A DNA stretch of 64,000 nucleotides from a virus. The stretch lies in the IMG/VR virus record IMGVR_UViG_3300040815_002027. One strand, written 5' to 3'. How positions within the stretch are numbered: the stretch's first letter is position 1; every line of letters begins with the position of its first letter. The notes beneath the pieces were generated by a model. It worked only from the letters and a program-made list of their open reading frames with translations. It was not told the DNA's origin and did no database searches. Below, piece by piece: positions 22,027 to 45,888 of the stretch. The position numbers and the translations under genes were made by a program.

Positions 22027-22029
22027 CGA

Positions 22030-22245: not shown

Positions 22246-22250
22246 GTTAG

Positions 22251-22921
22251 GGTGTATACCACCACAATTTGAAAGGTGTTTACAACTAATGTTAGACAAA
22301 AAAATAAGTATAGCTTGGTATATAGCACCACAGTTTGAAAGGTATTTACAACGGAAACTTAGGTTACCTACTATCTGCTGAAGGTGTATACCACCACAGT
22401 TTGAAAGGTATTTACAACGAAAACTTAGGTTACCTACTATCTGCTGAAGGTGTATACCACCACATTTTGAAAGGTATTTACAACCAAATGAAGAACGATG
22501 CACAATAAGATGTAGGTGTATAGCACCACAATTTGAAAGGTGTTTACAACAGATCTAAAAGAAGAAGCAGAAAAACTTTCAGTGTATACCACCACAATTT
22601 GAAAGGTATTTACAACTAGTACCTATAGTATCAAAGTTAAATCAGAGGTGTATACCACCACAGTTTGAAAGGTATTTACAACTTATGTTATGAAGGTAGT
22701 ACTCCTTATATTGGTGTATACCACCACAATTTGAAAGGTATTTACAAACGGTGTCTCTTTAGCATCATAATTTTAAAACTGTTTACAACATAGCGACATC
22801 AATGTCGTTACCATAGATGGCTGTATACCACCACAATTTTAAAACTGTTTACAACATAGCGACATCAATGTCGTTACCATAGATGGCTGTATACCACCAC
22901 AATTTTAAAACTGTTTACAAC
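22251..22921 (+). CRISPR. CRISPR array: 11 repeats of 36 bp (consensus GGTGTATACCACCACAATTTGAAAGGTATTTACAAC), nine 30-bp spacers
   Basis: Repeats start at 22251, 22317, 22383, 22449, 22515, 22581, 22647, 22713, 22754 (degenerate), 22820, 22886; 66-bp period except a 5-bp gap at 22749-53. Confidence 0.96.
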
Positions 22922-22938
22922 ATTAAAAAATCAAAGTT

Positions 22939-23334
22939 ATGAAAAGAATTAGTTTAGTTTTAGTATTACTGTTATCAGCATATCTTGGGTATTCACAAAA
23001 AGGCCAGGATATTGTCTCTTTAGAAGAGATCTTAGAAACTATAAACACTGGCTTGGAAGATCAAGCCTTTGAAAAATTACGGCAAGAAGCACACTCCAAA
23101 GAAGATAACGTTATCTTTAATGTAAAGTATCTATATCCTAATGTATGTTACAGACAACTAATAACTAAAGCAACAGGACAGAAGCTTTATATACAGGTAG
23201 CTTGTGATGCTATACACGCTAAGAATGGTCTTACTTTTAAAGAAGAAGAGGCGTATGAAAGATACCAGTTTCTTATAAAGAACAAACGTAAATTTGATAG
23301 ATTAGATAGAAGAATAGAAAGAATGCACAATTAA
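22939..23334 (+). CDS. Exported hypothetical protein
   Basis: Signal-peptide-like MKRISLVLVLLLSAYLGYS. Confidence 0.6.
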   Translation: MKRISLVLVLLLSAYLGYSQKGQDIVSLEEILETINTGLEDQAFEKLRQEAHSKEDNVIFNVKYLYPNVCYRQLITKATGQKLYIQVACDAIHAKNGLTFKEEEAYERYQFLIKNKRKFDRLDRRIERMHN

Positions 23335-25544: not shown

Positions 25545-25671
25545 AACAAGGAGGTGAGTACGCTTTAGTTGAGAGGTAGAGTGGATTAATTGCCGAAAAA
25601 GGGTTTGTAGTAGGTAGACGTTCCTCATTGCACTCAACAAGAAACCCTGAAACACCCAAAGCCTCCTTGTT
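25545..25671. ncRNA. Candidate structured RNA, possibly pseudoknotted
   Basis: 10-bp closing stem AACAAGGAGG/CCTCCTTGTT; crossing pairs GTTGAG/CTCAAC and AGGGTTT/AAACCCT. Confidence 0.4.
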
Positions 25672-25705
25672 TTTTGTTTACTATATTTATATATAAAGTA
25701 AAGAT

Positions 25706-26248
25706 ATGAAAGATTCGAGAAAGCTTTTAGCAACCATTGCAAAGGGATATTTGAGTGAAGAATTAAATCATAATATAGATGGGATAATAGCATATCATAG
25801 AAGCCCCAAAAAATTTTATGATTTTAAATTGTCAAATGTTAGTTCTGACAGTAATAGACAGAGATATGGGTGGGGGTTATATTTTTCAAACAGTATTCCA
25901 AATACGCAATATGGTGATTATTTATATCAAGTAAGTCTTTTTAAAAATAAGAAACAGTATGTTTTAATTGATTTAAAACAACCAGTTGAAGGACTTATAG
26001 TTAATAGGATTGTAGAAGCACTTAATCATTATAACAAAAAATCTGATGAAGTTGTTGAGTTTGCTTATAATGGATTTTTGTTTTATAAAACGTTATCAAG
26101 AATTTTAGGTGGTGATAAAAACGCATCTTTGTTTTTATCTAAAAATGGTATAGATGGGTTACTAAATAAAATAACTAAAAATTGGCACGATTATATATTA
26201 TTCAATGACGATAATATAATAATTGATGAGATTAAATATGACCCATAA
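25706..26248 (+). CDS. ADP-ribosyltransferase-like (PolyVal-type) domain with MKDSRK leader
   Basis: AYHRSP..F, YGWGLYFS, GIDG. Confidence 0.55.
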   Translation: MKDSRKLLATIAKGYLSEELNHNIDGIIAYHRSPKKFYDFKLSNVSSDSNRQRYGWGLYFSNSIPNTQYGDYLYQVSLFKNKKQYVLIDLKQPVEGLIVNRIVEALNHYNKKSDEVVEFAYNGFLFYKTLSRILGGDKNASLFLSKNGIDGLLNKITKNWHDYILFNDDNIIIDEIKYDP

Positions 26249-26376
26249 AAATAAAACAAAAAGAATGTTACGATGAAAATTAATACGAAGATGAAACGTA
26301 GCATTGCATATAACTGTTTGTTAATCCAATATGCTTCTGGCTATGTTTTGCAACTATTTATTAATAAAGTAAAGGT

Positions 26377-26871
26377 ATGAAAGATTCGAGAAAGCTTTTA
26401 GTAACCATTGCAAGAGGGTATTTAAATGAAAATATTGAAGATTATTCAAAATGGAAACGTAAAAATGTAACTTTGCGTGGAATGAAAGAATTAGGTAAAG
26501 CAAATGAAGTATATGGTTCTTTTGGAAAAGGATTATATACAGTACCTTTAAGTAATAAAGCAATGGCAAAACAATATGGTAAAATATATTTTGTTGTAAA
26601 TGGGATACCAAGAAAACCAAAAATTGTTGATTCATTAAATAATGCTGAATTGTTAAGACAAAAATTAATTAATGATTTTTGTAAAAAACATAACGAAGAT
26701 TATAGTCCTCGTTTTTTTGAATCAAATACAACTATGGAAGATGAAATGTTAAAGTTGGGTTATGATGGTCTTATAATAAAAGGTAGAGAGATGGTTAACT
26801 ACACCCCAAAGGATATTAAATATTTTAAAAATGAAAATGATTTACAACGTTACTATGAAGCACTTTCATAG
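26377..26871 (+). CDS. ART-like domain with MKDSRK leader
   Basis: LRG, FGKGLYT, GYDGLII..EMV. Confidence 0.5.
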   Translation: MKDSRKLLVTIARGYLNENIEDYSKWKRKNVTLRGMKELGKANEVYGSFGKGLYTVPLSNKAMAKQYGKIYFVVNGIPRKPKIVDSLNNAELLRQKLINDFCKKHNEDYSPRFFESNTTMEDEMLKLGYDGLIIKGREMVNYTPKDIKYFKNENDLQRYYEALS

Positions 26872-26949
26872 TATTGGTGCTAAATTATTACTTAACCCAA
26901 TCTCTAAAAGCATCTATTTCGATGCCTTTAAAAATTAAATAAAAAAGTT

Positions 26950-27537
26950 ATGAAAATAGTAGAAAACACAGTTACAGCCATTATGGTTATTTTTGTTTTG
27001 GTATTTCTTTATTTCTTTATGTCTGCCCAAAAAAGTGTGGGAGAAGAACCTAAAACAGAACAAGTCTCTCACGATGTCATTCTAAATTCTGTGCGAGAAG
27101 TAATCTCCCTAACAGTAATAGAAGCAAACTTTACAGAGATATATACTAAAGAAGACTATTGGAAGTTAGATCTATCTCCTTTCAGAAAGAAGATGGTAGT
27201 TAAAGTAAAAGCTAATGTAGGTATAGGGTATGATCTAAATGAGTTATATATAGATGTAGATAGAGAATCTAAAACTATATTAGTATTAAGAATGCCTTCT
27301 CCCAAACTTTTGTATATAGATGATACATTGGAGTATTTTGATATATCTGAAGGATATTTTAATTGGTTTGACCCAGGAGATTACACAGAGATAGACAGAG
27401 AGACAAGAGATAAGATAGAGTCTATGGTAACTAATAGTAGTCTTTTTACTGATGCAGACATAAAATTATTTGAAAATTTAAAAATAATTCGTAACTTAGC
27501 ATCCGAGATGGGATGGACAGTAGTTATAAAGGATTGA
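26950..27537 (+). CDS. DUF4230 family membrane-anchored protein
   Basis: N-terminal TM; KVKANVGIGYDL; MPSPKLL. Confidence 0.75.
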   Translation: MKIVENTVTAIMVIFVLVFLYFFMSAQKSVGEEPKTEQVSHDVILNSVREVISLTVIEANFTEIYTKEDYWKLDLSPFRKKMVVKVKANVGIGYDLNELYIDVDRESKTILVLRMPSPKLLYIDDTLEYFDISEGYFNWFDPGDYTEIDRETRDKIESMVTNSSLFTDADIKLFENLKIIRNLASEMGWTVVIKD

Positions 27538-27567
27538 TACTCTCGTTTATATTTATAGTAAAAGCTA

Positions 27568-28062
27568 ATGAAACTTACAAAACTTTTAGAGACAGTTAGG
27601 GAAGATTTCGTAAATGAAGATATTAACCGTGATAAGTCAAGGAAAGTGTTGTTTGTTGATGGACACGGGAAACAAATTGTTTACGATGATGGTGCTTTTA
27701 GGATTGCTGTTGATGATAAAGATGATGCACTATATGTAACTTTATGGCATAAAGAAGATGTGAAAGGTAAAGAGTATTGGGTTAAACGTGGGTACATAGA
27801 TGCTTGGAAGAGTAAAATGAACTTTAAAGATAGAAGTGGTACTTATTTATCTATTCGTTCAATAGAAATTGAGAATAAATATAGAAATAAGGGGTACGGC
27901 ACAAAGTTATACAAAGCTCTATTTGATTTTTCAGCAAATGATGTTAAAGGTGTTTATTCTTACTTACCAAATAGGGTTAATAAAAAACAAGTGCCTAAAA
28001 TATATAATAAATTAGGTGCTATTACTGATGGTGATTACCAATTTATTGAGTTTAGTAATTAG
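27568..28062 (+). CDS. GNAT acetyltransferase with MKLTKLLE leader
   Basis: IENKYRNKGYGTKLY acetyl-CoA motif A. Confidence 0.75.
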   Translation: MKLTKLLETVREDFVNEDINRDKSRKVLFVDGHGKQIVYDDGAFRIAVDDKDDALYVTLWHKEDVKGKEYWVKRGYIDAWKSKMNFKDRSGTYLSIRSIEIENKYRNKGYGTKLYKALFDFSANDVKGVYSYLPNRVNKKQVPKIYNKLGAITDGDYQFIEFSN

Positions 28063-28110
28063 TGATAAAACAAAAGTATTTAAAATATTAATTAATTAAA
28101 AGTTACAAAA

Positions 28111-31100
28111 ATGAATTACAAAGGTTTTGATGTACAGATTGAGATTAAGCAGTACAAAAATGGGGGAGATGCTATCTATCTAATAGATAAGCAGGACCAT
28201 TCACCAGTAGCAGTAGCAACAAGTTGGATTGAAGGTTTAGAACCTGATGAGTTAGCCATTAAAGATTATAGTGAGAATGAAGGTATATATAGATGGTTAG
28301 TAGACAATAATATTGTTACTCCATCCGTTAGAATGCTTTATGGATTTCCTATTTGTAAATTAGTTAACAATTAAATAAAAAAAGTTATGGAAAAGCAAAT
28401 TAAAAACTTAATCGAATTAGCAGAGCAGTATTACCAATATGCCATAGAAGAAGATTTCCCAAGTGGACACACCTGGTTACAGACAGACTATGGGGAGGTT
28501 GGGGTATACTTATCCACTTACAGTAGAAGAGATTACTCAGTGAAATTCGATGGCGAAGTGGAGGTTGCAGGATATGCAAATAGAATAGCAATGGGATTTA
28601 CTGCCACTTCAGAAACTTTAGAGAAATTATATAATAACTTTTCAAAATATCTTAAAACTGAAAAAGATAAGATTCAAGAACAAGTAGCAGTCCAAAGAGC
28701 TGAGAAGATAAAAAATTTGGAAGAAGAACTATCAAGATTAAAAAACTTATGAATAGGTTCACTTTCTTAAAAGTCTATAACTCTCCATTTAAGCCATTCC
28801 TACCTAAGTTATATATAGGTAGGATGACTATTGGAGTACCTTACTTTTATTCTCGTAAAAAAGTAGGGTTTGACCTTGTAGGCTTAGGTTATAAGACAAA
28901 GTGGTCAGATACTGACTATAGGTTCGAGTATAATCCTATATGGTCATTTACATTTTATAAGTGGCAGATTGCTTTAATCTTTGCACCTATTGAATGTAAC
29001 TATTATTGGCAGGCTTGGTTGTACTACTTTTACAATACTAAAGGTACGAAGGAAGAAAGGATAAGAGAATGTAAGAAGGAGTATCCACTTAAAATTACAG
29101 TAAGTGGTGTAAAGGATGGGAGGAGGTATGAGTATAGTTACGATGCGTATGATAAAGTTTTAAAATCGTAAAAATTATGGAAAACGAAGAAGTAAAAAAC
29201 AACGAAAAATATTCAATACCAATCTATGAGAATGGTGTGAAAACTGAATGGACTATTGATGGTGTAATAGGTGATGAAAAATATTTTGAGTTGTTGAAAT
29301 ATGGAAATGGTAAAGATTTACCTGATATGGTTAATGTTGGCGTAAAGAAATAATTTTTATATTTTATAACTTTTTGTTAATTCAAGTTTTTAAACATAAA
29401 ATTATGGAAAGAAATATAAGCGAAACACCCGAAAAATGGGTAATATTAAAACTACCAAATAATTACTATAAAGTTTTTGGAACTTGGGCTGGTGGTTATT
29501 TATATGGTGACAGATATAGATTAAATTCTGGAATTAGTAAAGTAGAACAAGACGAAAACTTTTATTATTTTATTGGATTTAGTGGAAGTTGCTATAAGTG
29601 TCACAAAAAAGGATATGGAACAGCGACATCTTACGGGTTAGGTGTTTTAAATAAAATAATAGAACAAGGAAACGGACAGATTGAGTTAATGGAAGATGCT
29701 GACGATTGGATAAATGTGGTATAACTATTTATTAATTAAAGTTTTAAACCTATCGAAATCGATGCCTTTAATAAATTACTAACAATTAAATTTTTAAAAT
29801 TATGAAAATGTATTATTACAATCCAAACAATTATAGTGCTGAATTTTTCGTTATGGCTGAAAACAAAACAAAAGCACATGAATACTTATTAAAACATTTA
29901 GAAAATAAGATTGTATCTGAAAGTTGCTATGCTGAGATGTATCAAGAAGATTTAGAAATATGGAAAAAAGTAAATCCCTTGGATATTAAAACATTTCCAG
30001 GTAAATATACTTTGGATGAACATGAAATTGGTTCAGTTATCGAATCTGAAATTGCTTAGTGGTTGCACTTTCGTAGCATTGTGTATAACTATTTGTTAAT
30101 CCAAGGTTTTAAACCCATCGAAATTAAGGGGTTTGTAAATTAAAAACAGATAAAATGGAATTAAAAAGAGTTATTGAAACATTAGAAAAACATCAAGAGT
30201 GGAGGCGTGACCAAAACGTACCACCAAAAGTAGAAATGCAAAGCCCTATTGAAATAGGAGCAGCTATTGATTATGCAATAAGCGAGTTAAAAAAATTGCG
30301 TTTATCTGATGTTGTAAAATCGTTGCCTAAAGACACAGACGGATGCAATATAAACAGTGTTAGCAACTATTTTCACTGCCAAAGAGAAGAAGAGATGGAA
30401 AGTAAATGTCAAACACAATGTGAACACTGTAAAGAATATTACAAACCATTAGAGCAATAATATTACTGCCAACGTTTTGGCTATGTGCCGTATGACGATA
30501 GGAATATGGACATATAGCCGTTGTTGTGCATAGTAGCGGATTAATTAACTAAAGTTTGAATAAATGAAATTACAATTCTTAACAATCGAAATTGATGGAA
30601 AATGCTTTGACTTACCAAAGGATATGCAGATTCCGCAGAAAGGTAGCACTGTATTTATTGAGGGTAAAACAGGGATAGTTGAAAACATTCACTACCATAT
30701 AGTAGACGGAAAAGTACACATGATAAGCATTTTTGCTACGAAAGGGTAGCTATTATGCACAACTATTTGTTAATCCAAGTTATTAAGATAAAAAACAATA
30801 AAAGATGAAAAAGTACAGAATTACAATTAGAACCAGTTTTGGGTCATTTGAGATTGATGACATTGAAGCACAAGATGAGGATGAGGCATTTGATAAGGCT
30901 TGTGAAGAGGCTAAAAAAGAAATTGATTGTGCAAAACTGGATGAAGTTTATGAGTACGATTCTTAATGGTGCATAACGGTACAGTATAACAGTAGTGCGG
31001 ATAATTAAAAACAATAATATGGATAAGTACACGAAAAAAGCGGTGTTTAGTTACTTAAAGAAGTATGACCACATAGCAAACGAAGAGGACTTTATAGAAG

Positions 31101-32625
31101 TTACTGAATGGAAAAACGGTGAAGGATTTGATGTAGAGATAGTTGGAAAATTAAGTACAAGGTTTCAATTAACTTGGGGTGAATACACCGCTTTGAAGAA
31201 GTTGGTTAAAAAACTTGATGGTTAGCATTACTGTTATACATTGTTGTAGTGTCGTTTTAATGCACTACAACGGCTACAGGTATGGCAATGTAATTTTACG
31301 GATTTGAAACACGGAAATTAATTATGGACAAGATAGATAGATTAAAGCAATTACTTCTGACACACAGAACAGAAGATATAAGCAAATTAACATTTGAAGA
31401 AAGGATTGATTTTGACGATGCGTTTGCACAAGAGATAGTAAAATTATTTGCTATACCTGATGTTATAGAGCCGAAGGGAAAGTTAAAATGCGAATGTAAA
31501 GATGAGTGGATGGAAGATGTTATTTATGTTCAGTGTAGTAAGTGTGGTGAAAAGTACTAACGCATTTTAATTCTCTATAACTATTTGTTAATCCAAGTTA
31601 TAAAAATAAGGAACATTGGCAAATAAAAATAAAGACCTTAAATTAGTAAAAGTTGGTACTGTTCGAAAACATATGGATGCGCATTTTAGAGATGAAATCA
31701 GCTACTCTGAAGCAGTTAATAGAATAAATAAAGAAGCAAATAAAAATATGAGAAATATGAAAGCAAAATTAACATTTATACTGCCAGAAGATAGGTACGA
31801 ATATGACATGGCAGTCAATGGAAGCAATTGGCATCACGTTGCTTGGGAGATGTACCAATACTTGAGAGGCAAAACTAAATATGCACCAGATGATGCTCAT
31901 GAGGAGTACACTCAAGCAATGTCTGATTGTAAGGATAAGTTGTTTGAAATTATGCGAGAAAACGGAGTAGATTTTGACTTATGAGAAAATCAAAGTTTGA
32001 CATATCATCACAAAAACCTTTGAGTTTTAGAATCAAAGAGTTTTTTAGAAGCCTACTTTTTTGGAAAGGTAGACAGAAAGGTGTGATTCATACCCGTAAT
32101 ATTATATTGGATGATTTCCGATATAAGGATGATTTCCGATACATCTTTTTTCCAAAAGATTTTGCTGAGAAATATGGATATTTGGGTACTTCTGTTTGGA
32201 ATGAGGATAGTGTTTATTTCAAAGCACTTTATCCACTTGTTCTTGCATTAGATTATGAAGCAAAACCAAAATGGTGTCCAAGATGGTTTCTTCGTTTTCT
32301 TGATGTATTTGGTTCTGATAGGTCAGTCGTTAGAGTTAGGAATTTGAGATTGCACAATTTACAAACAAAACTAACCAAAGGAATTGCATTTGTAGATTGG
32401 AAAACAAAATGGAGTGATTACGATTTAAGAATCAGTATCCATGCACCTTCTCACTTACAAGATTTGGCTTCAGCCATTGAAGAAAAGTTTTATTCTAAAG
32501 GTAGACAGAAAGAGTTAGTAAAACAAATCAAACAGTTAGACCCAAATGCCTCTATAATATGGGGGAGTATAAAACGGTTAGAAGAACAATTAGAGAAGTT
32601 AGAAAATAAGGTTGTAGACTTATAA
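28111..32625 (+). CDS. Run of about 14 small hypothetical genes, many in cassette-like units (includes 29177-29353 and 30805-30966, absent from ORF track)
   Basis: Same-strand short ORFs, several ending at AAC-type boundary sites. Confidence 0.6.
30464..30530. repeat. attC-like hairpin
   Basis: TGCCAAC-GTTTT-GGCTATGTGCCGTAT..ATATGGCATATAGCC-GTT-GTTGTGC. Confidence 0.6.
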
Positions 32626-32661
32626 TACCTATAAATAAGGTTGTAGACTTATAATACCTAT
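32604..32661 (+). repeat. Perfect 29-bp tandem duplication
   Basis: AAATAAGGTTGTAGACTTATAATACCTAT x2 across the stop of 31981..32625. Confidence 0.9.
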
Positions 32662-32714
32662 AATTGTGAATAACTACGATAAGTTTATTGTATATTTATA
32701 TATAAACAGAATTA

Positions 32715-33419
32715 ATGAAAGACTTAAGAAAATTCTTATCTACAACTGCGAAACAGTATTTGAATGAACAAGCATCATTAGAAAATGTGAAACTAAATGA
32801 TAATTTTTGGGAATGGTTTGGTAATAGTAAAGTTGTTGATAAAGATGGGAATCCAATGATTTGTTATCATGGAACACCAAAAGGTGGTTTTACTGAATTT
32901 AAACCAAAAACTGGTTATAAAGGTAAATCAAAACAACAAGTTGATTTAGGTTCGCATTTTTCAATTGATAAAGAATATGCTTCAGGATATGCTGGTGATA
33001 AAAAAACATCAAAAGTTTATGAATCATTTTTGAGAATAGAAAATCCGTTATATACTAATCAAATGTTTTATAGAGAGGATAATGAAAAATTATTTCTCAA
33101 TTATTTGAATTTTATAACCAAAACATTCAAATTAAAATTAGGTGGTGATTACTACTATAACAAAAATGGAGATAAGCAAAATGAACCACAAAATATTATG
33201 CTCAATAGTTTTTTGATTGATAAAATACCATCAAATAAACTTTATAATAGTTTAATAGAATTTGGTTTTGATGGTGTTTTTCACGAACCATATAATAGGG
33301 AGGGGTTGAGTCATTTTAAAAAACATCCATTGGCATACATAATTATAGAACCGAACCAAGTTAAATCAATTGATAATGATGGTAGTTGGGATGTAAATGA
33401 TAATAATATTTATTCTTAA
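32715..33419 (+). CDS. ART-PolyVal-like protein with MKDLRKF..YLNE leader
   Basis: FWEWFGNSKVVDKDGNPMICYHGT; GFDGV; EPNQVKSIDNDGSWD. Confidence 0.7.
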   Translation: MKDLRKFLSTTAKQYLNEQASLENVKLNDNFWEWFGNSKVVDKDGNPMICYHGTPKGGFTEFKPKTGYKGKSKQQVDLGSHFSIDKEYASGYAGDKKTSKVYESFLRIENPLYTNQMFYREDNEKLFLNYLNFITKTFKLKLGGDYYYNKNGDKQNEPQNIMLNSFLIDKIPSNKLYNSLIEFGFDGVFHEPYNREGLSHFKKHPLAYIIIEPNQVKSIDNDGSWDVNDNNIYS

Positions 33420-33550
33420 TTTTGTGTGGTGGAGAAAAAGTAAAACAAAAAGATTATAATCACGAAACTTAATACGAAGCACAAACGTAGCATTGCATAT
33501 AACTAATCGCTATCCGCATATTTATGGTGGATATACAACAAAAACAAATT

Positions 33551-34294
33551 ATGAAAACAGTTATATTAGGAGACATCCACGGAACAAATTATTGGCAAAC
33601 TATAATAAACTTCGAGAAACCTGATAGAGTTGTGTTCGTAGGAGATTATTTTGATTCTTTTGATATTCCTTACGATAAGCAGATAGATAACTTCCTGGAC
33701 CTCATAGAGTACAAGGAAAAAAGTGGGGGAGAAGTCATACTACTAATAGGTAACCACGACTATCATTATCTACCCTATATAAACGACACATATACATCAG
33801 GCTATCAATCTAAATATGCTCATTTAATAAAACAAGTAGTAGAAACTAACTTACACCATCTACAGATAGCCTATCAGTTTGATGACTTTCTAATAACACA
33901 TGCAGGAGTAAGTGAAGAGTTTATGGATAATAACTTTGATAAGTGGTCTGAGGAAACTATAGTAGAACATCTTAATGATTTATTTAAATATAAACCTAAT
34001 AAGTTTTTATTTAATGGTCTTGACCCTTATGGAGACGATACTTACCAGTCTCCTATATGGATAAGACCTAAAAGTCTTATGAGAGCAAACAAGACATCAG
34101 AACTAAAGAGAAGGTATGTTCAAGTAGTAGGGCATACTCAAGTAAAGGAAATTGATACGAAGGGAGGTGCTACGGGAGGAAGGTATTATTTTATCGACTG
34201 CTTATCTACGAGTGGGCAGTATATGATCGTAGATGAAGATTCGTTTATTAATTTTAAAAGTTATAGAGATTATGATAAAGAAGATACTGAGTAA
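33551..34294 (+). CDS. Metallophosphoesterase (paralog of 20001..20717)
   Basis: GDIHG, GDYFD, GNHD, THAG, GHT; shared KG.AT.GR.YF.D. Confidence 0.9.
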   Translation: MKTVILGDIHGTNYWQTIINFEKPDRVVFVGDYFDSFDIPYDKQIDNFLDLIEYKEKSGGEVILLIGNHDYHYLPYINDTYTSGYQSKYAHLIKQVVETNLHHLQIAYQFDDFLITHAGVSEEFMDNNFDKWSEETIVEHLNDLFKYKPNKFLFNGLDPYGDDTYQSPIWIRPKSLMRANKTSELKRRYVQVVGHTQVKEIDTKGGATGGRYYFIDCLSTSGQYMIVDEDSFINFKSYRDYDKEDTE

Positions 34295-35063
34295 AGTTTG
34301 GAATTCAAAAATAATTTGTATATTGTTGCACACCAGGATAAAGATAAAGGACTTTCCTTATGAGATAGATCCTGTAACACAACGGCCCTACGGTAGGTAT
34401 AAGTGTAAAATTTGCGGGAGAAGATACCTTGCCAATAATAGATTCGATTGGTATCAAATAGATATAAAGAAGAAACATAAATAAACTAATTATAGAATGA
34501 ACATAGGCGTACTAAAACATAACGAGACTGGATGGTACATCGAAACTCCAGATAGAGACTATAAACTACATCCTGAAGAAGAGAAGGTCTGTAACATGTA
34601 TGTAGACTATTCTATAGACTGGATAGGAAAAACTGTAGAGTTCCGTATAAAGAAAGATAAAAAAATATCCTATGCTATTACAGAAAAGTTTGTAAAATAG
34701 AAAATAAAGATTTATATTAGCGTTTATGAAACACATTAAGCAAGCGTTACGACTATTACTACTATGTTGGCTTATTGTATTTCTATTATTTATATTATTA
34801 ATTAACTTAAATTAAAAGGTTATGGCATTATTTTTTTTCGGTTTGGGAGCAGGAGTTTCTCTGTCGTTGGTTTTATCGTTTATTGGTATAAGGTCTTTAA
34901 TTTTATCTAAAAAGAACAGCTCTTCTATAGAGGTGTTAGAGAATGACATTAGTTACAAGCTATCTATGATGCAAAAGCAGATAGCCAGACTTAAGTAAGA
35001 TTTTATGTGGGGACAAACTGTCCCCATTTGTTTTGAACTTTAATTTTAATAAAATAATTAACT

Positions 35064-35552
35064 ATGAATTTATTTTTTTTCCTTGTTGGTGTTAGCTGTT
35101 GCTTAATAGTTCTTCTCATTATCAACGCTGTTATTTTGCGAAACGATATAAATAGACTTAGGAAATCAGCATACAGAATGGAGAAGATGATTGAAGATGT
35201 TAATAATTCTTCGGACACTATGGCTATAACGTTAGAGAATAGACAAGATCGTTTAGCAGAAAGTCTCTCTCGCAGAATAGATGATTTGATTGCTACTGTA
35301 GATGCTAATGAAAAAGATCTCTACAGAGCCTTATCGAACAAAGAGTGTGACATCGATACCAGATTTAATTCTAGTATAAATGGTATTTACACTTCTTTAA
35401 AAGATATAGAAAATGTTGTTGATAACAACTCCAAAGAGGTTTATAACTCTTTAGATAAGTTAGAAGACAGGTTTGATAATAGGATAGATACTGCTATGAA
35501 AATCTTTTATGAAGATTTACAAAGTCTAGAAGGTTCTATTGATAAGGCTTAA
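35064..35552 (+). CDS. TM-anchored coiled-coil protein
   Basis: N-terminal hydrophobic helix; heptad repeats. Confidence 0.55.
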   Translation: MNLFFFLVGVSCCLIVLLIINAVILRNDINRLRKSAYRMEKMIEDVNNSSDTMAITLENRQDRLAESLSRRIDDLIATVDANEKDLYRALSNKECDIDTRFNSSINGIYTSLKDIENVVDNNSKEVYNSLDKLEDRFDNRIDTAMKIFYEDLQSLEGSIDKA

Positions 35553-37212
35553 TACTCATGCTTTTTTTATACGTGGGAGGCTAGTCCTCCTACTTTTTAA
35601 ATTTAAATTATGATTAATACGTTACAATACTATTCTGAAAAATCTAAGTTTTTAGTATTCAAATACCATAGAGTAATTTTTGATGATCTACTTTTTAAAG
35701 GCTGGTCTGCGCATAATAATTATAGAGAGGTTTTATCTTTATACATCTATCTTATGAATGTTTACTTTAGAGTCCCTTTAAACTTATTAGCATCTACTCT
35801 TCCGATTGAGGAGTGTAGGTGTAAACTATATCTGGATAGTATTAAGATTTCATATATAACTAAAATATCTGAAAAATTAGACAATTATTCTGAACAGTAT
35901 GATATAACTTTAGCTAAGTTGTTTAAGTAGCCCAAACAAACTCTTCGCATCTTAGTTTGTTTTTAAATGTTTTTTTGTGAAAGGGTGAGGTAAAGTTCTC
36001 ACCCTATTTAGAATCCAAAAAAGTTGCCGAGAAGCCCTAATGAAAAATATACATACACTACAACTACATAATAAACTAATAATAGATAATAACACTTCAG
36101 TACTAAAAGTACCCAATGGACTAATATATACTATAAAGACAATAGAAACTATAACTAATACTAAAGATAATTCTAAATACACTATAACAAATACTAATAT
36201 AGTGTATGTACCTTATACTAATAACACTGATACTATAACAAATAAGGATACAGATAATAAACCTAACCCAGATATAGATCTACCAGATAGTCAATACACT
36301 ATAATATAACTTTATTATGTTTATCAAACTAAAATGATTGTTAAATTAAATACATACACTATAACTAATAGGTTATTTTATAGTATATATACACTATAAT
36401 ATATAACTACAAAGTATACGTTAGTCTTTCGTTTTTACAGGCTTCTCACTTAGGTGGGAGGCCTTTTTATTTATAACCCTAAAGGGTGGAGGTGGGAAGG
36501 ATTACAAAACGCATTCTAAAGGTTTACAAAATGTTTATCAAACTGGGGTGTCAAATTGGGGAGGTAGGTGCATATTTGCCCTGTCTTTTTCTCGACCCTC
36601 CATTTTTTTCCTACCAAATTTTATTTGGCCTGGGCTGGCCATCCTTCCTGGTTGATCTTCACCTGCCTGGTGGGTGGAGGACCTGGTCTGGTAGGAAATG
36701 CTTATAAGGGTCTACCTCATATCTATTTGTTTTGCGTGTTTGGTCAACCAGGGTCTGGTTGGAATAACTTATTTTTGAAAAAAGTTGGGAAAATATTTGG
36801 AGATGTGGGTGAGGTTATATTATCTTTGTGGAACTTTAAGCAAGGGGGGAGTCCTTCCTCCCGTTTCCATGTTTTAAGTTTTAGTTGATTAATGATTTTG
36901 GGGCCTCCTCTTTAACTAGGGGAGGCTTTCTTTTTATAACTCCAGAAGCTTATAAGGATGTTTCTGTATACTGGATTGTTTGCGTGTTTGACCAACCAGG
37001 CCTGGCAGGCTGGTAAGTTTGGTGTGAAGTTAGTAGGCGGCTTGGATCCTTAAGTTCAGTATAAAGTTAAACTACCTATTATATAAGGTGTAGTATACTA
37101 TATACACTATATACTATAAAGTTATTTTTTTTTAAAAAAGTTGCAGCGAGGTATTGTGTAATTAAAAACTTACTTATATATTTGCGACATCGTTAATCAC
37201 TAAAATAGAAAT

Positions 37213-40200
37213 ATGATGAAAAAGATCAGGGTAACAAATGAAGAACTATTCTACGGTAAGAATGTAGAAGTATTTACTGAGAACTTAAATGTAGGTACTA
37301 TTAGAGGTAGGTTTATTGGTACTGGACATTTACGCATTGTATGGGATGGGGACTCTATGGTAAGTTCTGGTGAGTTTGGGAGGGATGATTTTGAGGAGGA
37401 CTTTGGGTTTGTGTTTGAGGTGGAGAAAAATCCTAAAGAGGAGCAGTACTTTATACTGAGGGATATCCAGAGGTCTGGGTATAATGTAGTAACGTGTGGA
37501 GATTGTGGCACGGTTAATCTTGTTAGGTTTTCTGATGGAGACTTTTACAAGTGCCATAAATGTGGGTTTGATGATGACAGTAGTTCTTTTCCAGATTTAT
37601 TTTATTAATTAATTTAAAACTTAAATATTATGACAAAGACAAAGATGTGTTCATTGGTAAAGTTAAACAACCTTATCTACAACTTTACCAAAGTTATTCC
37701 TTCCCTAAAGGAGCAGTACCTTCACTTTCATTATGATATATCTACGGATACAATATCTCTATTAGAGATTAATGGTGGAAAGCCTATGGAGGGAGATGAT
37801 ATGTCTATAAGGTTTTCTGAGGAGGGTGATTTGTATGAGATTACTGTAACTGGGGATAAGTCCTTTTGTAATACGGTAGGTGATGTATTAAATCATATAG
37901 AGAATTGGTTTGCATAATAACTTGTTTTATATCTGGAATTGGTGATGAACCTCTCCCCAACTTTTGGTGGAGGGGTTTTTTTATGCTTATAAGGATCTAC
38001 CTTATATCTATTTGTTTTGCGTGTTTGCCCAACCAGGGAAGGTCTGGCCTGGTTAGTTTACTTTGAAGTTATTATAGAGCTGGTTAGTTTACTATAAACT
38101 TATTATATGTAGATCTACTTTAAAGTTATTTTTTTTGAAAAAAGTTGGGGTGAGGTATTGCGTAATTAAAAACTTACCTATATATTTGCAACATCATTAA
38201 TCATTAAAACAAAAAATTATGAAAGCTTTTGTAGTATTAATCCTAGTTGAAGGTTCATTAGTAGAGCCAAGAAAGACTTGTGAATTCCTTGAAGGAACTA
38301 AATTTGATATCGGAGGTTCAGTTCAAGCCACATCTACTGACGTATTGAACAAGGTTCTGTTTGAATTAGGTCTAAATGATTCTGATGGCATAGGAGTGCT
38401 TTCAATTTCAGACTTTATGGACAGGTTTAATGACCAAGAATTAAACCCAGATGACTACTTTATGTCTTATGTGTATGCTTAGTATTGTGTAATTAAAAAC
38501 TTTCCCCTATATTTGCAATCATTAATTAACTTTAAACTAAACAATATGGAAAACTTACAAATGATAAATATGTTAGACTTTCTGTTTGATATGTTAGAGC
38601 ATTACCCAGACTTCCCAAATTATTCAGAAGCAAAACAGTTATCTGTTCTTACAAAGCATATAAACTATCAAGATGGTCATACTAAATTAAATTTACAGTA
38701 TGATTATATAGGAGAAGCATCAGATGATTACTATAAAGTTATATTTGATATGAGTGATTTTGGTGAGGTATTTAAGTATGCAGATGAAGAGGTTTTATCT
38801 GAAATAAAAAGTAGTGAAGAGTTTAAGAGTAATAATAAGTATTTTATGTTTAATGGTAAAGGTATAGTATCTAATGATGATATTACTGTGTTAGGTTTTG
38901 ACTCTAAAAAGATTGCACAGTACATATTAGAAGAGTATCATAATTTTATATGTTAGCATAGTTTCGGATAGTATGTTTGAGCCTCTCCGCCAGATTTTGG
39001 TTGGAGGGGTTTTTTTATGCTTATAAGGATCTACCTTATACCTATCTGTTTTGCGTGTTTGCCCAACAGAGCTGGCTGATCTGTAAGTTTACTTTGAAGT
39101 TATTATATGTACTGGGTAGTTTACTGTAAACTTATTATATATAGGTTTAATAAAAAGTTATTTTTTTTTCAAAAAAGTTTGCGGAGAAGAAATAAAAAAC
39201 TATATTTGCAGAACATTAATCATTAAAACATAACAAACATGAACAATTACGATTTCTTTTTATTCACAAAACTAGTGGATGTAAGATTCCCCAACAATAA
39301 GGATTCTTACGATGAGTTGTACGATACCTTATCTATGGCTTATAACTCTTTTCTATCAAGTAAGTATAACGACTTTGATAAAGGAGTTTATGAGTGTATA
39401 GAAGAATACTTGGAAGATGAGGACTTACCATTCAGACAATGTACAAAGACTGGTAGTTACATTGTAGAGGGGTATATGGTCAATCACAATTTAATGTCGT
39501 ACGGAGATATCGAATACTATGCTTCAGAAGAAGATTTAGTAGAAAGATTGAAGGAAACTTATCCTGAAATTTCAGATAAGGAAGAACTACTGGCTACTGC
39601 CTATGAAGATGAGTATTACTGTTGGACACAATTTAATAATTAACTTTAAACTAAAACTATTATGGAAGATTTCAAATTAATCAATGTACTGGAACTGGCT
39701 TCTGAACTAGCAGATATGAAAGTTAGAGAAATTATGGTAAACTTTTCAGATATTTACATTGAAGATAGTGATGGAAGTACAAGGTATACTGAAGAGGCTC
39801 AAGACCTATTTAACGAGTGGTACGATTCCTACACTGAACTAATACAATCTATTTAACTTTAAACTAAAACTATTATGGACAAATTACTTAAATCTGAAAT
39901 TGACAAAGCAAAAAAACTTTTAAAAGACAATGGCTACCAAACGTATAACTTGTGGCACATTGACGATGTATTGGATGAAGAAGGGCTTTTAGAGGATGGC
40001 GATAAGATGGAGATACTGGAAGAAGCACTCACAAATGAATGGGTTATAGAACAAATTTTTTTTATTATAAACGACATTAGAGATAGGTATATTGAAGAAG
40101 TTAAAAACAAAAAAGCATGAGAAGGAAGTATTTAAATAGAGTAACAGAAAGTGATTTTATAAACTGGTACTTTAGCGATTCAGAAGACTTGACCGAATTT

Positions 40201-40368
40201 GCAAAAGGTATTATTGATGAACTGGCAGAGACTGGTAAATGTAACTTGACTGTAAAGAAAGTATTTGATAACTGTGGGTATATACCCTCACACATTTGCG
40301 AGTCTAAACTGGATGGGGAAGAATACCAACCGCACGAAGTTAGACTGGTAAAAGATATTTCTAATTAA
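37213..40368 (+). CDS. Small acidic early-type hypothetical genes (37213 with Zn ribbon, 37630, 38219, 38546, 39239, 39662, 39875, 40117)
   Basis: Each unit preceded by a TATATTTG promoter; CGDCG/CHKCG in 37213. Confidence 0.65.
39178..39208 (+). promoter_or_regulatory. Bacteroidota sigma-A promoter (near-identical copies at 40638, 41607, 42664, 43697)
   Basis: TTTG-N19-TATATTTG matches the -33/-7 consensus. Confidence 0.85.
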
Positions 40369-40702
40369 AAGTAAAAAAGTTAGGGGAGAGTGTATAATAA
40401 TTAAAAACTTTCCCCTATATTTGCAGAACATTAATTAACCATAAAAACTTAAAGTTATGAAAGTAGCAAGACCCAAGACAGAAAAATGGCATAATGACCA
40501 AGAAGGTGATTGCAGAAAACCTATTGATAGAGATGGAAGTAAAAAATCATATTATAAAAAAGGATGGTGGAAAAGATATGATAGAAAGAAGTTTTTCCGC
40601 AATATTAACAAGTGGTTTGGATAATTACCGCTAAAAGTTTGCGGAGAAGAAATAAAAAACTATATTTGCAGAACATTAATTAACAACTAAAAATTTAAAA
40701 CT

Positions 40703-41362
40703 ATGCCAAACTGGTGTTCAAATTACGTAACGATTTACGGAGAAGATTTCTCCAAAGTAAAAGATTTACTTTTAACTAAAACTGATGATGATGGTCTTTT
40801 CGAGCATACTGTAGGTATTGTAAAGGAAGGCTATTTAAGAGATGAAAAGTATAAAAATTTAGGAGAGGTTATGCTTGATAACAAATACTTTAACTGGTAC
40901 GACCACAACATAAACGAGTATGGTACAAAGTGGGATGTTAATGAGATTTCATTTGATGTTTTTGCCGACCCATCTGATGAGCATATTTCCTTTAGTTTTG
41001 AGTCCGCTTGGTCTCCTCCTTTAGAATGGGCAAGAAAACTGTCAGATAAGTTTAAAGTAATTGTGGTAATAGAGTATGCTGAAAATGGTTGTGATTTTGG
41101 AGGTAGGTCAATATTTGAGAATGGAGATGAAAAGGAATTTGCACAATACACATACCTTAACTGGATGTTAGTTGATGATACGAGTGGAACTAGGTTTATG
41201 GAGGAAATAGAGTACATAACATCTCATATGGACAAAGATGAGTTTGAAGAGTATAAGCAGGATATTATAGAGTCTGCTGAAGAACAGTTAGACTCTACTT
41301 TTGTAAAGACTGTTGTGGATGTATTTGATGAAATAGAAAAGAGTATGTTTGAAGAATCTTAA
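40703..41362 (+). CDS. DUF1281/YubB ferredoxin-like domain protein
   Basis: MPNWCSN; WYD..I..YGTKWD; FESAWSPP; Y.E.G.DF.G. Confidence 0.8.
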   Translation: MPNWCSNYVTIYGEDFSKVKDLLLTKTDDDGLFEHTVGIVKEGYLRDEKYKNLGEVMLDNKYFNWYDHNINEYGTKWDVNEISFDVFADPSDEHISFSFESAWSPPLEWARKLSDKFKVIVVIEYAENGCDFGGRSIFENGDEKEFAQYTYLNWMLVDDTSGTRFMEEIEYITSHMDKDEFEEYKQDIIESAEEQLDSTFVKTVVDVFDEIEKSMFEES

Positions 41363-41670
41363 TAGTAATAGGTTATGTTTTAGAGTGCCTCTCCCCCGCT
41401 TTTGGAGGAGGGGTTTTTTTGTGCTTATAAGGATGATCCGATATACCTACTAGTTTGCGTGTTGTGTGAACTGGTTGAACGTATTTGTAAGTTTATTTTA
41501 AAGTTATTGTACATACTATATGTTTACTTTTAAGTTATTATATGTATTATATGTTTACTGTAAAGTTATTCTGTTTACTTTTAATTTATTTTTTTTTGTA
41601 GAAAAGTTTGCGGAGAAGAAACAAAAAACTATATTTGCAGAACATTAATCAACATTAAAAACTTAAAGTT

Positions 41671-42391
41671 ATGGAAACTTACAAAAAGATTGGTAATTAC
41701 ACATTCAAGTTAACATCAAAATACAATATTGGTGATGAAATTTTTTATCAGAATATGAAATGGAGTTATAAAGATGAGAAAAATATCATTACAAAAGAAA
41801 AGGCAAAAATAGTTGATATGTATGATTATGGTAATAAAAATTGGGGAACACTAAATGTTAGAGTTATACCTGAAAGAAAAGAATTGTGGGATAAGGATGG
41901 TGGTAGGTGGATTAGTGAAAATGATATTATTTCAAAGGTGGGTGGGTAAAAATTATTGCACATAACTATTTGTTAACCCAAGTTTAAACTTAATACCAAT
42001 GAAACTAACATTCAGTATTTTAATTATCTTTATATCTTTAACTGTACATTCACAGTCCAGAAGATTCACTTTAGATAAAAGTAATTTAGCAACAGTACAA
42101 AGTAACAATATTAATCAACCAACAAAACAATCTACTATGAAGTTATTCATCGCAATCGAAGAAGGAAGGAACCTACGTTCCAGATTCATTACAAGCTTGG
42201 AAATTATTGCTAGAAATGAAATTGAAGCTAGAAAAATTATCAGAGAGTATAATCGTTATGTATTTGATAATAAGTTAAAAGTAAAAGAATTGAACAGACC
42301 TATCATTTGTGAAGTAACTATGACTGGTGCATTTGAACACCATAAGAACTCTACTAGAGGGTTTTATAACCCTACTACAGAAGTACAGTAA
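41671..42391 (+). CDS. Two hypothetical genes (41671..41949, 41999..42391)
   Basis: First ends at a cassette boundary site at 41963. Confidence 0.55.
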
Positions 42392-42512
42392 AGATATATT
42401 CACTCACTCTGTATAAAGGTGCTACATTAATTTGTAGTGCCTTTTTTTATGCTTATAAGGATGATCCTTTATACCTATTAGTTTGCGTGTTTGATGAAGT
42501 GACCAGTCAGTA

Positions 42513-42636
42513 TATATGTTTATTGTAAAGTTATTCTGTATACTATATGTTTACTTTTAAGTTATTCTGTATACTATATGTTTACTTTTAAGTTATTCTG
42601 TATACTATATGTTTACTTTTAAGTTATTCTGTATAC
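42513..42636 (+). repeat. Four tandem 31-bp repeats TATATGTTTACTTTTAAGTTATTCTGTATAC
   Basis: Copies at 42513, 42544, 42575, 42606; related arrays near 38055, 39085, 41490, 43570, 44450. Confidence 0.9.
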
Positions 42637-42725
42637 TTTTAAGTTATTTTTTTTGCAGAAAAGTTTGCGGTGATGAAATAAAAAACTATATTTGCAGAAC
42701 ATTAATCATTCTAAAACAACACAAT

Positions 42726-43448
42726 ATGAAAAGTTTAACGTTTTTATCAGCCAATCAAAAAGTTGTAAATGTCATTGCATTAAATAAAACTAAAAATGGC
42801 AAAATAACTACACCGAATAAATTAATACTACAAACCTATCACTTTGATATTGAGCAAATAAATTTTGCCAAACAAGGTGGTAAAGGTATTAATTTAGATA
42901 CTGGATTTCTTAATCCTAAATTAACTGAAAATAATTGTTTGAGCTGTCCTTTAAGATTTGGCGGTTGTTATACACATCACGGTATCCAGCCTGTAGGCCA
43001 TTTATCTATGTTACGTAGATTGGCTAAATTAGATAAAATACCTCAATATTCTGTTGATACCATTAACCAATCTTTAGCAATGTTACAATTAACTACAAAT
43101 AAATACATTAGGTTTGGCAGTTATGGGTGTCCAACAAATTTACCCTTTAATTTGGTACAATTATTAGCCGAAAATGCTAATAACTATACGGGATATACGC
43201 ATGAATGGCACAATCCTAAAAACTACAAATATATGGCTTATTTTATGGCTTCTACTCACCAAAGTGACCCTATATTCAGTAGCAAATTAGCCAATGATTT
43301 GGGTTTTAGAACATTTGAGATAGACGGAAAAGTTAATACCGTCCAATGTCCACATTCAACCAACAAAGATATTAAATGTGACAAATGTGGTTTATGTAGC
43401 GGATATAAAGGTAAAGGAAAAACAAATATAGGTATCCCAAAACACTAG
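42726..43448 (+). CDS. Cys-rich phage protein (gp88-like, possible Fe-S)
   Basis: CLSCPL..GCY, IRFGSYG.P, TGYTHEW, FMAST, CP...CDKCGLC. Confidence 0.6.
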   Translation: MKSLTFLSANQKVVNVIALNKTKNGKITTPNKLILQTYHFDIEQINFAKQGGKGINLDTGFLNPKLTENNCLSCPLRFGGCYTHHGIQPVGHLSMLRRLAKLDKIPQYSVDTINQSLAMLQLTTNKYIRFGSYGCPTNLPFNLVQLLAENANNYTGYTHEWHNPKNYKYMAYFMASTHQSDPIFSSKLANDLGFRTFEIDGKVNTVQCPHSTNKDIKCDKCGLCSGYKGKGKTNIGIPKH

Positions 43449-45075
43449 GTTTAGATTGATTAATTAGTTTAACGGCCTGGCAATAAGTTAGGCCGTTTTT
43501 TTTATGCTTATAAGGATGATCCTTTATACCTATTTATTTGCGTGTTTGATTAATTACTAATTAGTGTTTATGTTTACTTTTAAGTTATTATACACACTAT
43601 ATGTTTATTGTAAAGTTATTCTATATAGTATATGTTTACTTTTAAGTTATTCTATATAGTATATGTTTACTTTTAAGTTATTTTTTTCTAGAAAATTTTG
43701 CGGTGATGAAATAAAAAACTATATTTGCAAAAGATTAATTAACAATTAAAACTTATTAAAATGAGGAATTTAAAATTGCACGAAATTATTGAAAGGTCTG
43801 AATCGCTTGTGGAAATTAGCTATAAAGACGTTGCACCAAAAGTAAAACAATTAAAAACTTACTACGGTACTAAAGTTTTCTTTTTGGCTACATTTGTTAG
43901 CAATGCTATTCAAGGTGGTATTGTTGTCCCAATAGATTATATAAATGAAGCAATAGATGAAATAGCACTACTACATTCAGAAGATAATGAGGAATTTGAA
44001 TATTTAAAAGAATTATACAGTCACCAAACAGTATTATTATAATTAATTAACAATTAAAACTTATTATTATGCCGTACTCAATTGAAGATACTATGGAAAT
44101 TTACCTGTTAAATAATGAAACAGGCGAAGAATGTACTTTTAAAGTAGATTTCAACTATTACTATGACGAAGGTAGATATCACAGTGCGTGGGAAGATAGT
44201 TATCCTGCTGAAGAATGTCTGGAAGTTACATGGGTTGAAAATGAAGAAAATTTGCCCGACTGGGTAACTGAGGAAATGATATATAATGAGGTGGAAAATA
44301 ACTTACACTGTTATTAATATCATAGAAAAATAGTGTTAAAATAGGGTAACATTAATTTGTTATCCTATTTTTTTTCTTATAAGGAAGACCTAATATGCGT
44401 ACTTGTTTGCGTGTTTGACCAATTGACTGGTTGACTGGATCTATTTTTATATGTTTACTTTAAAGTTATTCTGTATACTATATGTTTACTTTAAAGTTAT
44501 TCTGTATACTATATGTTTACTTTTAACTTATTATTACTATCAAAATAACTTTTTAGTAAAAAAAATTAACTTGATATTGAAATAAAAACTATCTTTGTAT
44601 CGTATTAATTAATAACTAAAACAACACAACATGGAATTTTTAAAAGAATTCGAATTGCAAGGATTTACTTACCACCTAGTTTTACACTGCGAAAAAACAT
44701 ACTTTTTTTTCGCTGGACTATTTTTTGAGGCTAACGGTTTTGAGTCTCAAATAACCGTTGAAAATTACATTTTATCATTATTAAATTAATTAACTATGCT
44801 AAACTTAATCAAGCTCGTATTTTTGGTTTTAATTGGTATTGCATTATTGTATATTGATGCGGTTATAAAAATACCACAATTAAAACTTATTGCATCATTT
44901 CCTTTTATGACAGTGGGAATATATCTAATTATCCTATTCCTTTTCCCTAAATTGGAAAAGCGGATAATTGGCTAACTTTTTTTTAATTGGGTGAAAATTT
45001 TTTCATCCAATTATTCTTTATTTCAAATTTATTTATATCTTTGCTATCATTTTAAACTTTAAAAATTTTCAAAAC

Positions 45076-45864
45076 ATGGAAAAAGTAATTTCAAAAGACG
45101 AATTAATTAAGATTTGTCCAGCAGTAATTTCAAAGCAATCACCATCAGTTAAAAGCCGTTATGTTCATATTAACACTATGGACGTTATTGAGCAAGTATT
45201 AAACAGTGGCAATTGGGATATTACCAAAGCAATTGGTAAGGACCAATACGGTTACCATCAAGTTATCTTGACTCAAAACGATAGTTTTGAGAACACTGAC
45301 AAATTAGGAAAATTGTTTCCTCAAATTAAAGTAATTTCGTCTCATGACGGTACAACAAAATTTCAGATGCTTATGGGTATTTTTAGACTCATTTGTGATA
45401 ACGGTTTAGTTGCACCGATGAAAAATACTTCAGAAGCAAATACCGTAAAACATATTGGCATAGACACTGATTATGTTAACGGGGTAATCGAAAATACTTT
45501 ATCTAACGGTTACGGTATTATTGGGAAAATTTCTAAAATGAGGAACACTGATATTTTTGAGGATGCAAAAATAGACCTTATTAACACCGCACTATTGACT
45601 AAAGGTAGGGTACATGAAAATGAGGCTAGTAACTTTATTTCAAAGTTAAATACCGAAACCTACAAATCTATTTGTGAAATAAATAGACCACAGGATGCGG
45701 GAAATAATATTTGGAATGTTTTTAATACCGTTCAAGAAAATGTGCTACGTGGTAATTATACGGTTTACGGGGAAAAGAATAGAAAGGCTAGACCTGTTAC
45801 TGATTTTCGACTAAACGACCGTATTAATACAGCTATGTTTGAAAAGGTATTAGAACTAGTATAA
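45076..45864 (+). CDS. DUF932/DUF945 family protein
   Basis: RYVHINT, SSHDGT..FQ..GIFRLICDNGL, WNVFNTVQEN. Confidence 0.85.
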   Translation: MEKVISKDELIKICPAVISKQSPSVKSRYVHINTMDVIEQVLNSGNWDITKAIGKDQYGYHQVILTQNDSFENTDKLGKLFPQIKVISSHDGTTKFQMLMGIFRLICDNGLVAPMKNTSEANTVKHIGIDTDYVNGVIENTLSNGYGIIGKISKMRNTDIFEDAKIDLINTALLTKGRVHENEASNFISKLNTETYKSICEINRPQDAGNNIWNVFNTVQENVLRGNYTVYGEKNRKARPVTDFRLNDRINTAMFEKVLELV

Positions 45865-45888
45865 CATTAAAATAGTCTAGCATTAAGA

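Follow-up and report, generated by a model that had tools for sequence, protein, structure and literature searches.

A candidate promoter-type module at the junctions of exchanged gene cassettes in a large uncultured phage

The stretch of DNA analyzed here, referred to below as the window, comprises 64,000 nucleotides of IMG/VR virus record IMGVR_UViG_3300040815_002027 and corresponds to bases 3404 to 67403 of an 85.5-kb virus contig (G000) whose completeness is estimated by CheckV to be 47%. The subject of this report is a 22-bp motif, TAACTATTTGTTAATCCAAGTT, that recurs between small genes of this phage and at which its relatives exchange gene cassettes. The contig has a GC content of ~31% and carries nearly all of its coding sequence on the + strand; identifiable genes include those encoding a baseplate wedge protein, endolysins, several glycosyltransferases, and a homologue of TnpB-type transposases, together with an exonuclease-like gene. 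Because several genes are preceded by canonical Bacteroidota promoters, with TTTG at -33 and, after 19 nucleotides (nt), TATATTTG at -7, the phage would fit a host from the Bacteroidota. No similar phage was found among 50,697 phage records, whether the query was 16 kb of sequence (megablast), the module itself (blastn), or a 548-amino-acid protein (tblastn). An exact-core scan of IMG/VR recovered two relatives, of 70.8 kb (G001) and 5.5 kb (G002), and an exact 19-mer scan of metagenome contigs yielded 24 loci, of which 16 were related and 8 were unrelated chance matches that were excluded; the window, the two relatives, and the 16 related loci together provide 28 distinct sequence contexts for the motif. 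Among the matches listed from a degenerate scan of IMG/VR, multiple copies were confined to the two known relatives, all others being single and at chance level. An exact 17-mer scan of GTDB genomes returned 42 single matches in unrelated taxa, at chance level and with none in multiple copies; the motif is neither a host repeat nor part of a resident prophage. The whole window gave no match to an Rfam family at gathering thresholds.

Seven copies of the 22-mer, with zero to three mismatches, are present in the window at 26311, 29367, 29722, 30086, 30760, 31578, and 41963, where the initial annotation had placed them; all lie on the + (coding) strand, and the number expected from 100 dinucleotide-preserving shuffles was 0.01. 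A profile constructed from all collected copies retrieved the same seven, and no others, from the whole contig at an E value of <1e-4. Every copy occupies a short intergenic gap with co-directional genes on either side. The upstream open reading frame ends 0 to 65 nt before the motif, in agreement with the earlier description of the copies as lying at or just 3' of stop codons, and the next start codon is found 14 to 58 nt beyond it.

The copies differ in what they precede. Copy 1, which together with its upstream ATTGCATA block spans 26303 to 26332 (+ strand), is degenerate, with three mismatches and an E value of 1.2e-5, and is preceded by the 3' untranslated tail of gene 25706-26248 and followed by gene 26377-26871. 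Copy 2 (29359 to 29388, + strand; two mismatches) heads a cassette at 29367 to 29721 that carries gene 29404-29724, and the TAA of copy 3 (29714 to 29743, + strand) is the stop codon of that gene. Copy 3, a variant with A10, T16, and A17, heads the cassette at 29722 to 30085 with gene 29802-30059, and this variant recurs, together with the same leader, at L031:304 behind another left flank. Copy 4 (30078 to 30107, + strand; E value of 4e-10) heads the cassette at 30086 to 30759, containing genes 30155-30460 and 30564-30749, and is followed at 30110 to 30135 (+ strand) by a leader stem-loop, AAACCC..GGGGTTT, of a kind that follows the motif in about one-third of contexts. Copy 5, a CAAC variant (30752 to 30781, + strand), heads an 818-nt cassette at 30760 to 31577 with genes 30805-30966, 30995-31225, and 31324-31560. 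Copy 6 (31570 to 31599, + strand) is a perfect match and heads gene 31616-31984, which has a TTG start and whose homologues follow the motif behind five different left flanks. Copy 7 (41955 to 41984, + strand; one mismatch), which heads gene 41999-42391, is an outlier situated inside a host-type promoter/terminator unit. Two gaps inside cassettes, 30461 to 30563 and 31226 to 31323, are devoid of the motif and contain long hairpins (GGCTATGT..ACATATAGCC and GTTGTAGTG..CACTACAAC, respectively).

Over the 28 contexts, motif positions 2, 5, 7 to 9, 13, 14, 18, and 19 are invariant and most of the remainder are kept in at least 25, with positions 1, 16, 17, and 21 being more variable. The left side of the element had been described as variable and the right side as nearly fixed, and this distinction was borne out, with the addition that A at -8, T at -7, and T or G at -6 are conserved over 19 unrelated left flanks, even inside the last codons of the upstream gene; position -1 in these flanks is always A or C, and, downstream, positions +4 and +5 are AA in 23 to 24 of the 28 contexts. 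The retention of the three upstream bases within codons of the preceding gene suggests that they are constrained as DNA or RNA. The 22-mer is the core of a ~30-bp signal, A-T-K-N4-M-YAACTATTTGTTAATCCAAGKT, followed by an A/T-rich or a stem-loop leader. The two main leader types are a short A-rich form (14 to 26 nt) and the AAACCC..GGGGTTT form (40 to 58 nt), the hairpin of the latter, found in about one-third of modules, having 10 pairs and almost no covariation. The motif's own TAA serves as the upstream stop codon in 12 of the 28 contexts, most of the other upstream genes stopping 7 to 29 nt earlier, and the next start codon lies 5 to 58 nt 3' of the motif. Genes had been thought to point toward the site, in an orientation opposite to that of normal integrons; the upstream genes do so, but a co-directional gene also starts 5 to 58 nt downstream of every copy, and the layout is therefore that of a promoter and leader. 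A functionless repeat, the relic of a recent tandem duplication of an ancestral gene-plus-spacer unit, would account for the presence of most copies within a 2.2-kb array, but the genes between copies are mutually unrelated, as are the flanks as far as the boundary of the motif. In loci with only 75 to 85% identity, moreover, coding sequence is less well conserved than the motif, and the upstream ATK block is retained in unrelated coding tails; we consider such an origin extremely unlikely.

Comparison with relatives reveals extensive exchange of genes at the motif. G001 and the window share blocks that are 96 to 98% identical, broken by replacements and indels; in G001, unrelated cassettes take the place of the segment from 29167 to 30085, and the two sequences become near-identical again precisely where the motif begins, at 30086 of the window (2647 of G001). 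When all loci are considered, 25 combinations are formed from 19 left and 15 right flank classes; five of the left classes are found with more than one right class, and five of the right classes with more than one left class. A 257-nt unit, measured from motif start to motif start, is 95.7% identical in L031 and L045, and its surroundings in the two loci are unrelated (37% identity over 46 nt to the left and 54% in the gene bodies to the right); a second cassette is 95% identical in L045 and L039, again with unrelated left flanks. The 818-nt cassette headed by copy 5 is present in the window, G001, and L042 and absent from L040 and L046, where the left flank is the same and a single motif is followed immediately by a homologue of the C-terminal portion of gene 31616-31984. 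The order of cassettes also varies among loci. Since filled and empty alleles, which the initial annotation had suggested looking for, exist, as do reordered ones, the motif is a cassette junction, and the cassette part of that annotation is sustained: related phages exchange gene cassettes at the motif. No Pfam or PHROG family matched the genes carried as cassette cargo. Breakpoints are also seen inside genes, at 30313 within gene 30155-30460 and within gene 31616-31984. The N-terminal half of the former recurs in L026, L033, L038, and L039 with other C-terminal parts, and the latter comprises an N-terminal module fused to a module that is free-standing and motif headed in L034 and L040.

The points at which exchange occurred are not fixed. 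Homology was found to end at either edge of the motif, at its position 5, or 32 nt and 47 nt in; one G001 gene has lost its motif through a deletion between short TTTAAAAT repeats, and in L034 and L038 the hairpin leader directly follows a different upstream conserved noncoding block, without the motif. Cassettes lacking the motif are also mobile in this region, namely, the GNAT gene at 27540 to 28088 and the ART gene at 32605 to 33550, each headed by TATATTTATAG/T. The variable exchange points and the mobility of motif-less cassettes fit a pattern of recombination at any repeated regulatory sequence, and we infer that exchange is driven by homology and proceeds without a dedicated recombinase.

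The initial annotation had interpreted the element as an attI-like or simple tyrosine recombinase site, and this part of its proposal was not upheld. Simple sites of the dif, lox, and FRT type possess inverted arms of 11 to 13 bp around a spacer of 6 to 8 bp. The two inverted half-sites that had been described around TATTT do exist, but their arms (TAAC/GTTA) are only 4 bp long, and a frequency matrix of the 28 contexts displayed no symmetry past these 4 bp. Integron attC sites are imperfect inverted repeats (R''-L''...L'-R') that fold as single-stranded DNA and contain the core GTTRRRY, with crossover at G|TT. Folding of four of the sites, on both strands, gave z-scores of -1.5 to +1.5 relative to shuffled sequences, with only the 4 bp of TAAC/GTTA being paired, and the core of the motif reads GTTAATC (GTTAACC at 41963), with T or C in the position of the third R. 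A tyrosine recombinase (PF00589) was not detected at an E value of ≤0.1 in G000 (85.5 kb) or G001 (70.8 kb), both of which are less than 50% complete, and all control genomes scored in the same search; no serine recombinase was found in these two incomplete genomes, which together provided 156 kb for gene searches. The search for phage recombination genes recovered only the exonuclease-like gene at the start of the contig.

A recombinase gene could nevertheless have been missed, since less than half of either genome is represented, and a dedicated enzyme from the unsequenced half might bind the ~30-bp site and move circular cassettes at a fixed point near AAC|TAT. Cassettes bounded exactly from motif to motif that recur in unrelated contexts, their permuted order between loci, and the retention of the upstream ATK block within coding sequence are all compatible with such an arrangement, as is the occurrence of a left block (..ATTGCATATAAC) on its own: this block, ACGTAGCATTGCATATAAC, lies at 33482 to 33503 (+ strand), at the end of the ART gene cassette tail, where it is joined to unrelated sequence, and its homology with copy 1 ends just past TAAC. 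Against this stand the absence of tyrosine and serine recombinase genes from the 85.5 and 70.8 kb searched, the 4-bp dyad arms with no fold above that of shuffled controls, the misfit of GTTAATC to GTTRRRY, the heterogeneity of exchange points with some junctions lacking the motif, the equal mobility of cassettes with other 5' elements, and the strict spacing of 5 to 58 nt to start codons, which recombination would not need. We therefore view a dedicated recombination site as improbable. The permutation, gain, and loss of cassettes between arrays is an integron-type trait, and the motif might be the core of a phage-borne integron-like system, with its recombinase encoded in the unsequenced half and ~30-bp minimal sites that also carry an expression signal; this is, in our judgment, decidedly improbable.

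We favor, with moderate confidence, the view that the motif is a lineage-specific promoter-type module, sometimes with a leader hairpin behind it, and that it also provides a short stretch of homology through which genes of unknown function are shuffled. The small genes of unknown function that occupy a hyperplastic region of this large Bacteroidota phage would thus have the motif as their 5' regulatory module, and it most likely acts as a phage-specific promoter of the middle or delayed type. Within it, ACTATTTG may represent a defective form of the host -7 box (TAnnTTTG) whose recognition would be assisted by a phage factor, with transcription expected to begin near CCAAG. The placement of one module before many unrelated genes would generate patches of identity of 22 to 40 bp, at which homologous or short-homology recombination could swap, delete, insert, and reorder genes, as promoter-early stem-loop (PeSL) elements do in T4-type phages. 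Because the motif matches no host promoter consensus, its promoter activity is inferred. In the short-leader class, TTTG and the start codon are 26 to 38 nt apart, compared with 29 to 34 nt for the canonical Bacteroidota promoters of the phage, and ACTATTTG has its last six positions in common with the phage's own -7 box, TATATTTG. The TAnnTTTG box is absent from the listed intergenic gaps between 23.3 and 36.6 kb and is present in most gaps between 37 and 46 kb, host-type promoters being found, for example, at 39178, 40638, 41607, 42664, and 43697. Between 26 and 32.8 kb, sigma70-type matches number 25, fewer than the mean of 37.3 in shuffled sequence; as a class, the motif copies are fitted by none of them, and no terminator lies on the + strand. 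No other promoter candidate is thus apparent in this stretch, where the sole recurrent upstream elements are the 22-mer and a second sequence, TATATTTATAT. On the basis of these comparisons, we propose a third, phage-specific promoter class that would require a phage factor.

Several observations weigh against this interpretation. The motif conforms neither to the Bacteroidota consensus, there being no TTTG-N19-TAnnTTTG match at any of its copies, nor to the sigma70 type, for which the copies give one nominal match (9/12), at 29374. ACTATTTG agrees with TATATTTG at six of eight positions, without the conserved TA and without a -33 TTTG at the right spacing. Pfam models for sigma factors and multisubunit RNA polymerase found no match in the two half-genomes, G000 and G001; a T7-type RNA polymerase model likewise found none there but also none in control genomes and is uninformative. 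In L034 and L038, hairpin-leader genes stand directly behind a terminator-like noncoding block, which shows that such genes can occur without the motif. Near-identity at all 22 positions could reflect homogenization by recombination rather than recognition of every base. Finally, the 22 bp common to all copies vary too little for a crossover inside the motif to be placed, and a fixed cleavage point is therefore still compatible with the data.

Two further explanations concern how the motif might act. The array could be transcribed from an upstream promoter as one long message in which the motif is a site for intercistronic processing or for a translational regulator, with shuffling a by-product of the repeat. 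The motif is strictly strand specific and intergenic, a start codon may lie as near as 5 to 6 nt after it (L026), no + strand terminator was found between 26 and 32.8 kb, making read-through possible, and no known promoter consensus is matched, all of which would suit an RNA-level element. On the other hand, no secondary structure is tied to the motif itself, Rfam gave no match, the conserved block reaches across the stop codon into the preceding coding sequence, as is more usual for DNA recognition, and TTTG is as far from the start codon as in canonical promoters; we regard this explanation as unlikely. Alternatively, the motif may be an operator only, separate from the promoter and bound by a regulatory protein of the phage, for example, a repressor that silences these genes. 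Contiguous conservation over ~30 bp and restriction to one lineage, with multiple copies in this phage group only among the matches listed, would be expected of such an operator, but no separate promoter is detectable beside the motif, the gaps are often wholly filled by motif and leader, and the dyad symmetry usual for dimeric repressors is lacking, which leaves this alternative quite unlikely in our estimation.

Other elements were also noted in the window. TATATTTATAT occurs exactly at 7952, 25682, 32691, 50093, and 60813 and with one mismatch at 15448, 27548, and 59668, on the coding strand and mostly 10 to 25 nt 5' of start codons, and among the genes that it heads are one that is protease-like and those of the mobile GNAT and ART cassettes. 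It looks like a late-type promoter class, although its statistics are marginal (25 matches compared with 17 expected when one mismatch is allowed). Genes 25706 and 26377 and the ART gene at 32715, which otherwise differ, have in common an upstream element and their first ~18 codons (MKDSRKLL...), the common start segments being at 25684 to 25759, 26355 to 26430, and 32693 to 32768. Among these paralogous leaders, a weak motif-like element, AACTATTTATTAATAAAG (26355 to 26373, + strand; E value of 1.3; family D14), holds the place taken by TATATTTATAT at 25682 and 32691. A 3' untranslated tail is common to two of the three genes (family D18; 26247 to 26332 and 33436 to 33521, 78% identity), and the common start and tail form a second cassette chassis that is distinct from that of the 22-mer. 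At the left edge of the ART cassette, 32605 to 32660 is a tandem duplication of a 28-nt unit (AATAAGGTTGTAGACTTATAATACCTAT) that is absent from G001.

The region around copy 7, from 37000 to 46200, is a series of transcription units built to one plan: a hairpin terminator comes first, then a 57-nt conserved element (GCTTATAAGGAT...TTTGCGTGTTTG) and two to four tandem 31-bp repeats, and finally a canonical Bacteroidota promoter (TTTG-N19-TATATTTG) with a single gene behind it. Here, too, G001 has different genes between the modules. Upstream of the motif array lies a conserved noncoding block of ~125 nt (25545 to 25675) that recurs with 77 to 93% identity in five metagenome loci; an 11-bp stem (CAAGGAGGT../..GCCTCCTTG) closes it, and a T-run comes after the stem. 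In relatives the stem reads CAAGGACGC/GCGTCCTTG, a compensatory change, and the downstream neighbor is different in every relative. The block, for which Rfam gave no match and the fold z-score is only -1.07, is a candidate for a phage small RNA or a terminator. At 20724 to 22940, a repeat array with a 66-nt period lies behind a TnpB-type gene; no spacer of this array corresponds to the motif or to any cassette of the retrieved relatives.

Comparison with known systems places the element closest to regulatory modules that also act as sites of recombination. Like integrons, the phages maintain arrays of single-gene cassettes that differ in order and content between relatives, with AAC and GTT triplets at the junctions and cargo that is mostly of unknown function. 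In contrast to integrons, they have yielded no IntI-type gene (in G000 and G001), no folded imperfect palindrome, no core fitting GTTRRRY, and no fixed exchange point, and whereas integron cassettes are promoterless and carry attC at the 3' end, the phage cassettes carry the motif 5', beside the start codon. With respect to expression, T4 middle promoters consist of a MotA box and a -10 element. In Cellulophaga phage phi14:2, an extended tripartite middle-promoter motif is read by the host RNA polymerase (bioRxiv 10.1101/2020.03.07.982082). As in these two systems, a long phage-specific block appears to replace the upstream host element and is combined with a partial host-type proximal box, and the class coexists in the genome with host-type (early) and TATTTATA-type (late-like) classes; no sequence similarity to either system was established, however, and no activator or sigma gene was identified in this phage. 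If our interpretation is correct, the signal is unrelated to the host promoter and represents a candidate third promoter class in a phage group without a cultured member.

The cassettes also recall the morons of lambdoid and other phages, in which an inserted gene, equipped with an expression signal of its own, separates resident genes (PMC2839356), but moron insertion is not tied to a conserved flank, whereas the phage motif is a preferred junction. The nearest parallel is provided by PeSLs, the regulatory cassettes of T4-type phages RB49 and phi1, which carry a strong host sigma70 consensus promoter and whose promoter and terminator activities have been measured (Arbiol et al. 2010, PMC2839356). 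In both cases, repeated intergenic modules lie directly 5' of genes in a hyperplastic region where small genes of unknown function abound, the modules contain the end points of the indels and replacements that distinguish near-identical relatives, gene and module together form the cassette, and crossovers are spread over the module. Many PeSLs carry a G/C-rich stem-loop, of which the hairpin (CCC..GGGG) found in about one-third of the phage modules, with 10 pairs but almost no covariation, may be a counterpart. Circular excision products (mini-circles) are a further trait of PeSL-type cassettes. The phage motif differs in having no match to a host-consensus promoter and only a putative promoter activity, in the length of its conserved patch (~30 to 60 bp, compared with ~100 bp in PeSLs), and in belonging to an unrelated phage lineage with a host from an unrelated phylum. 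On this comparison, the phage module seems to work like a PeSL, with strict membership failing on the host promoter. The motif would also offer a simple marker for retrieving the mobile accessory-gene pool of this lineage from metagenomes, a pool that likely includes host takeover or antidefense genes. Should the interpretation hold, the PeSL principle, in which a repeated expression signal acts as a linker for trading small accessory genes while neighbors are left intact, is not confined to T4-type coliphages and apparently arose independently in a large uncultured Bacteroidota phage.

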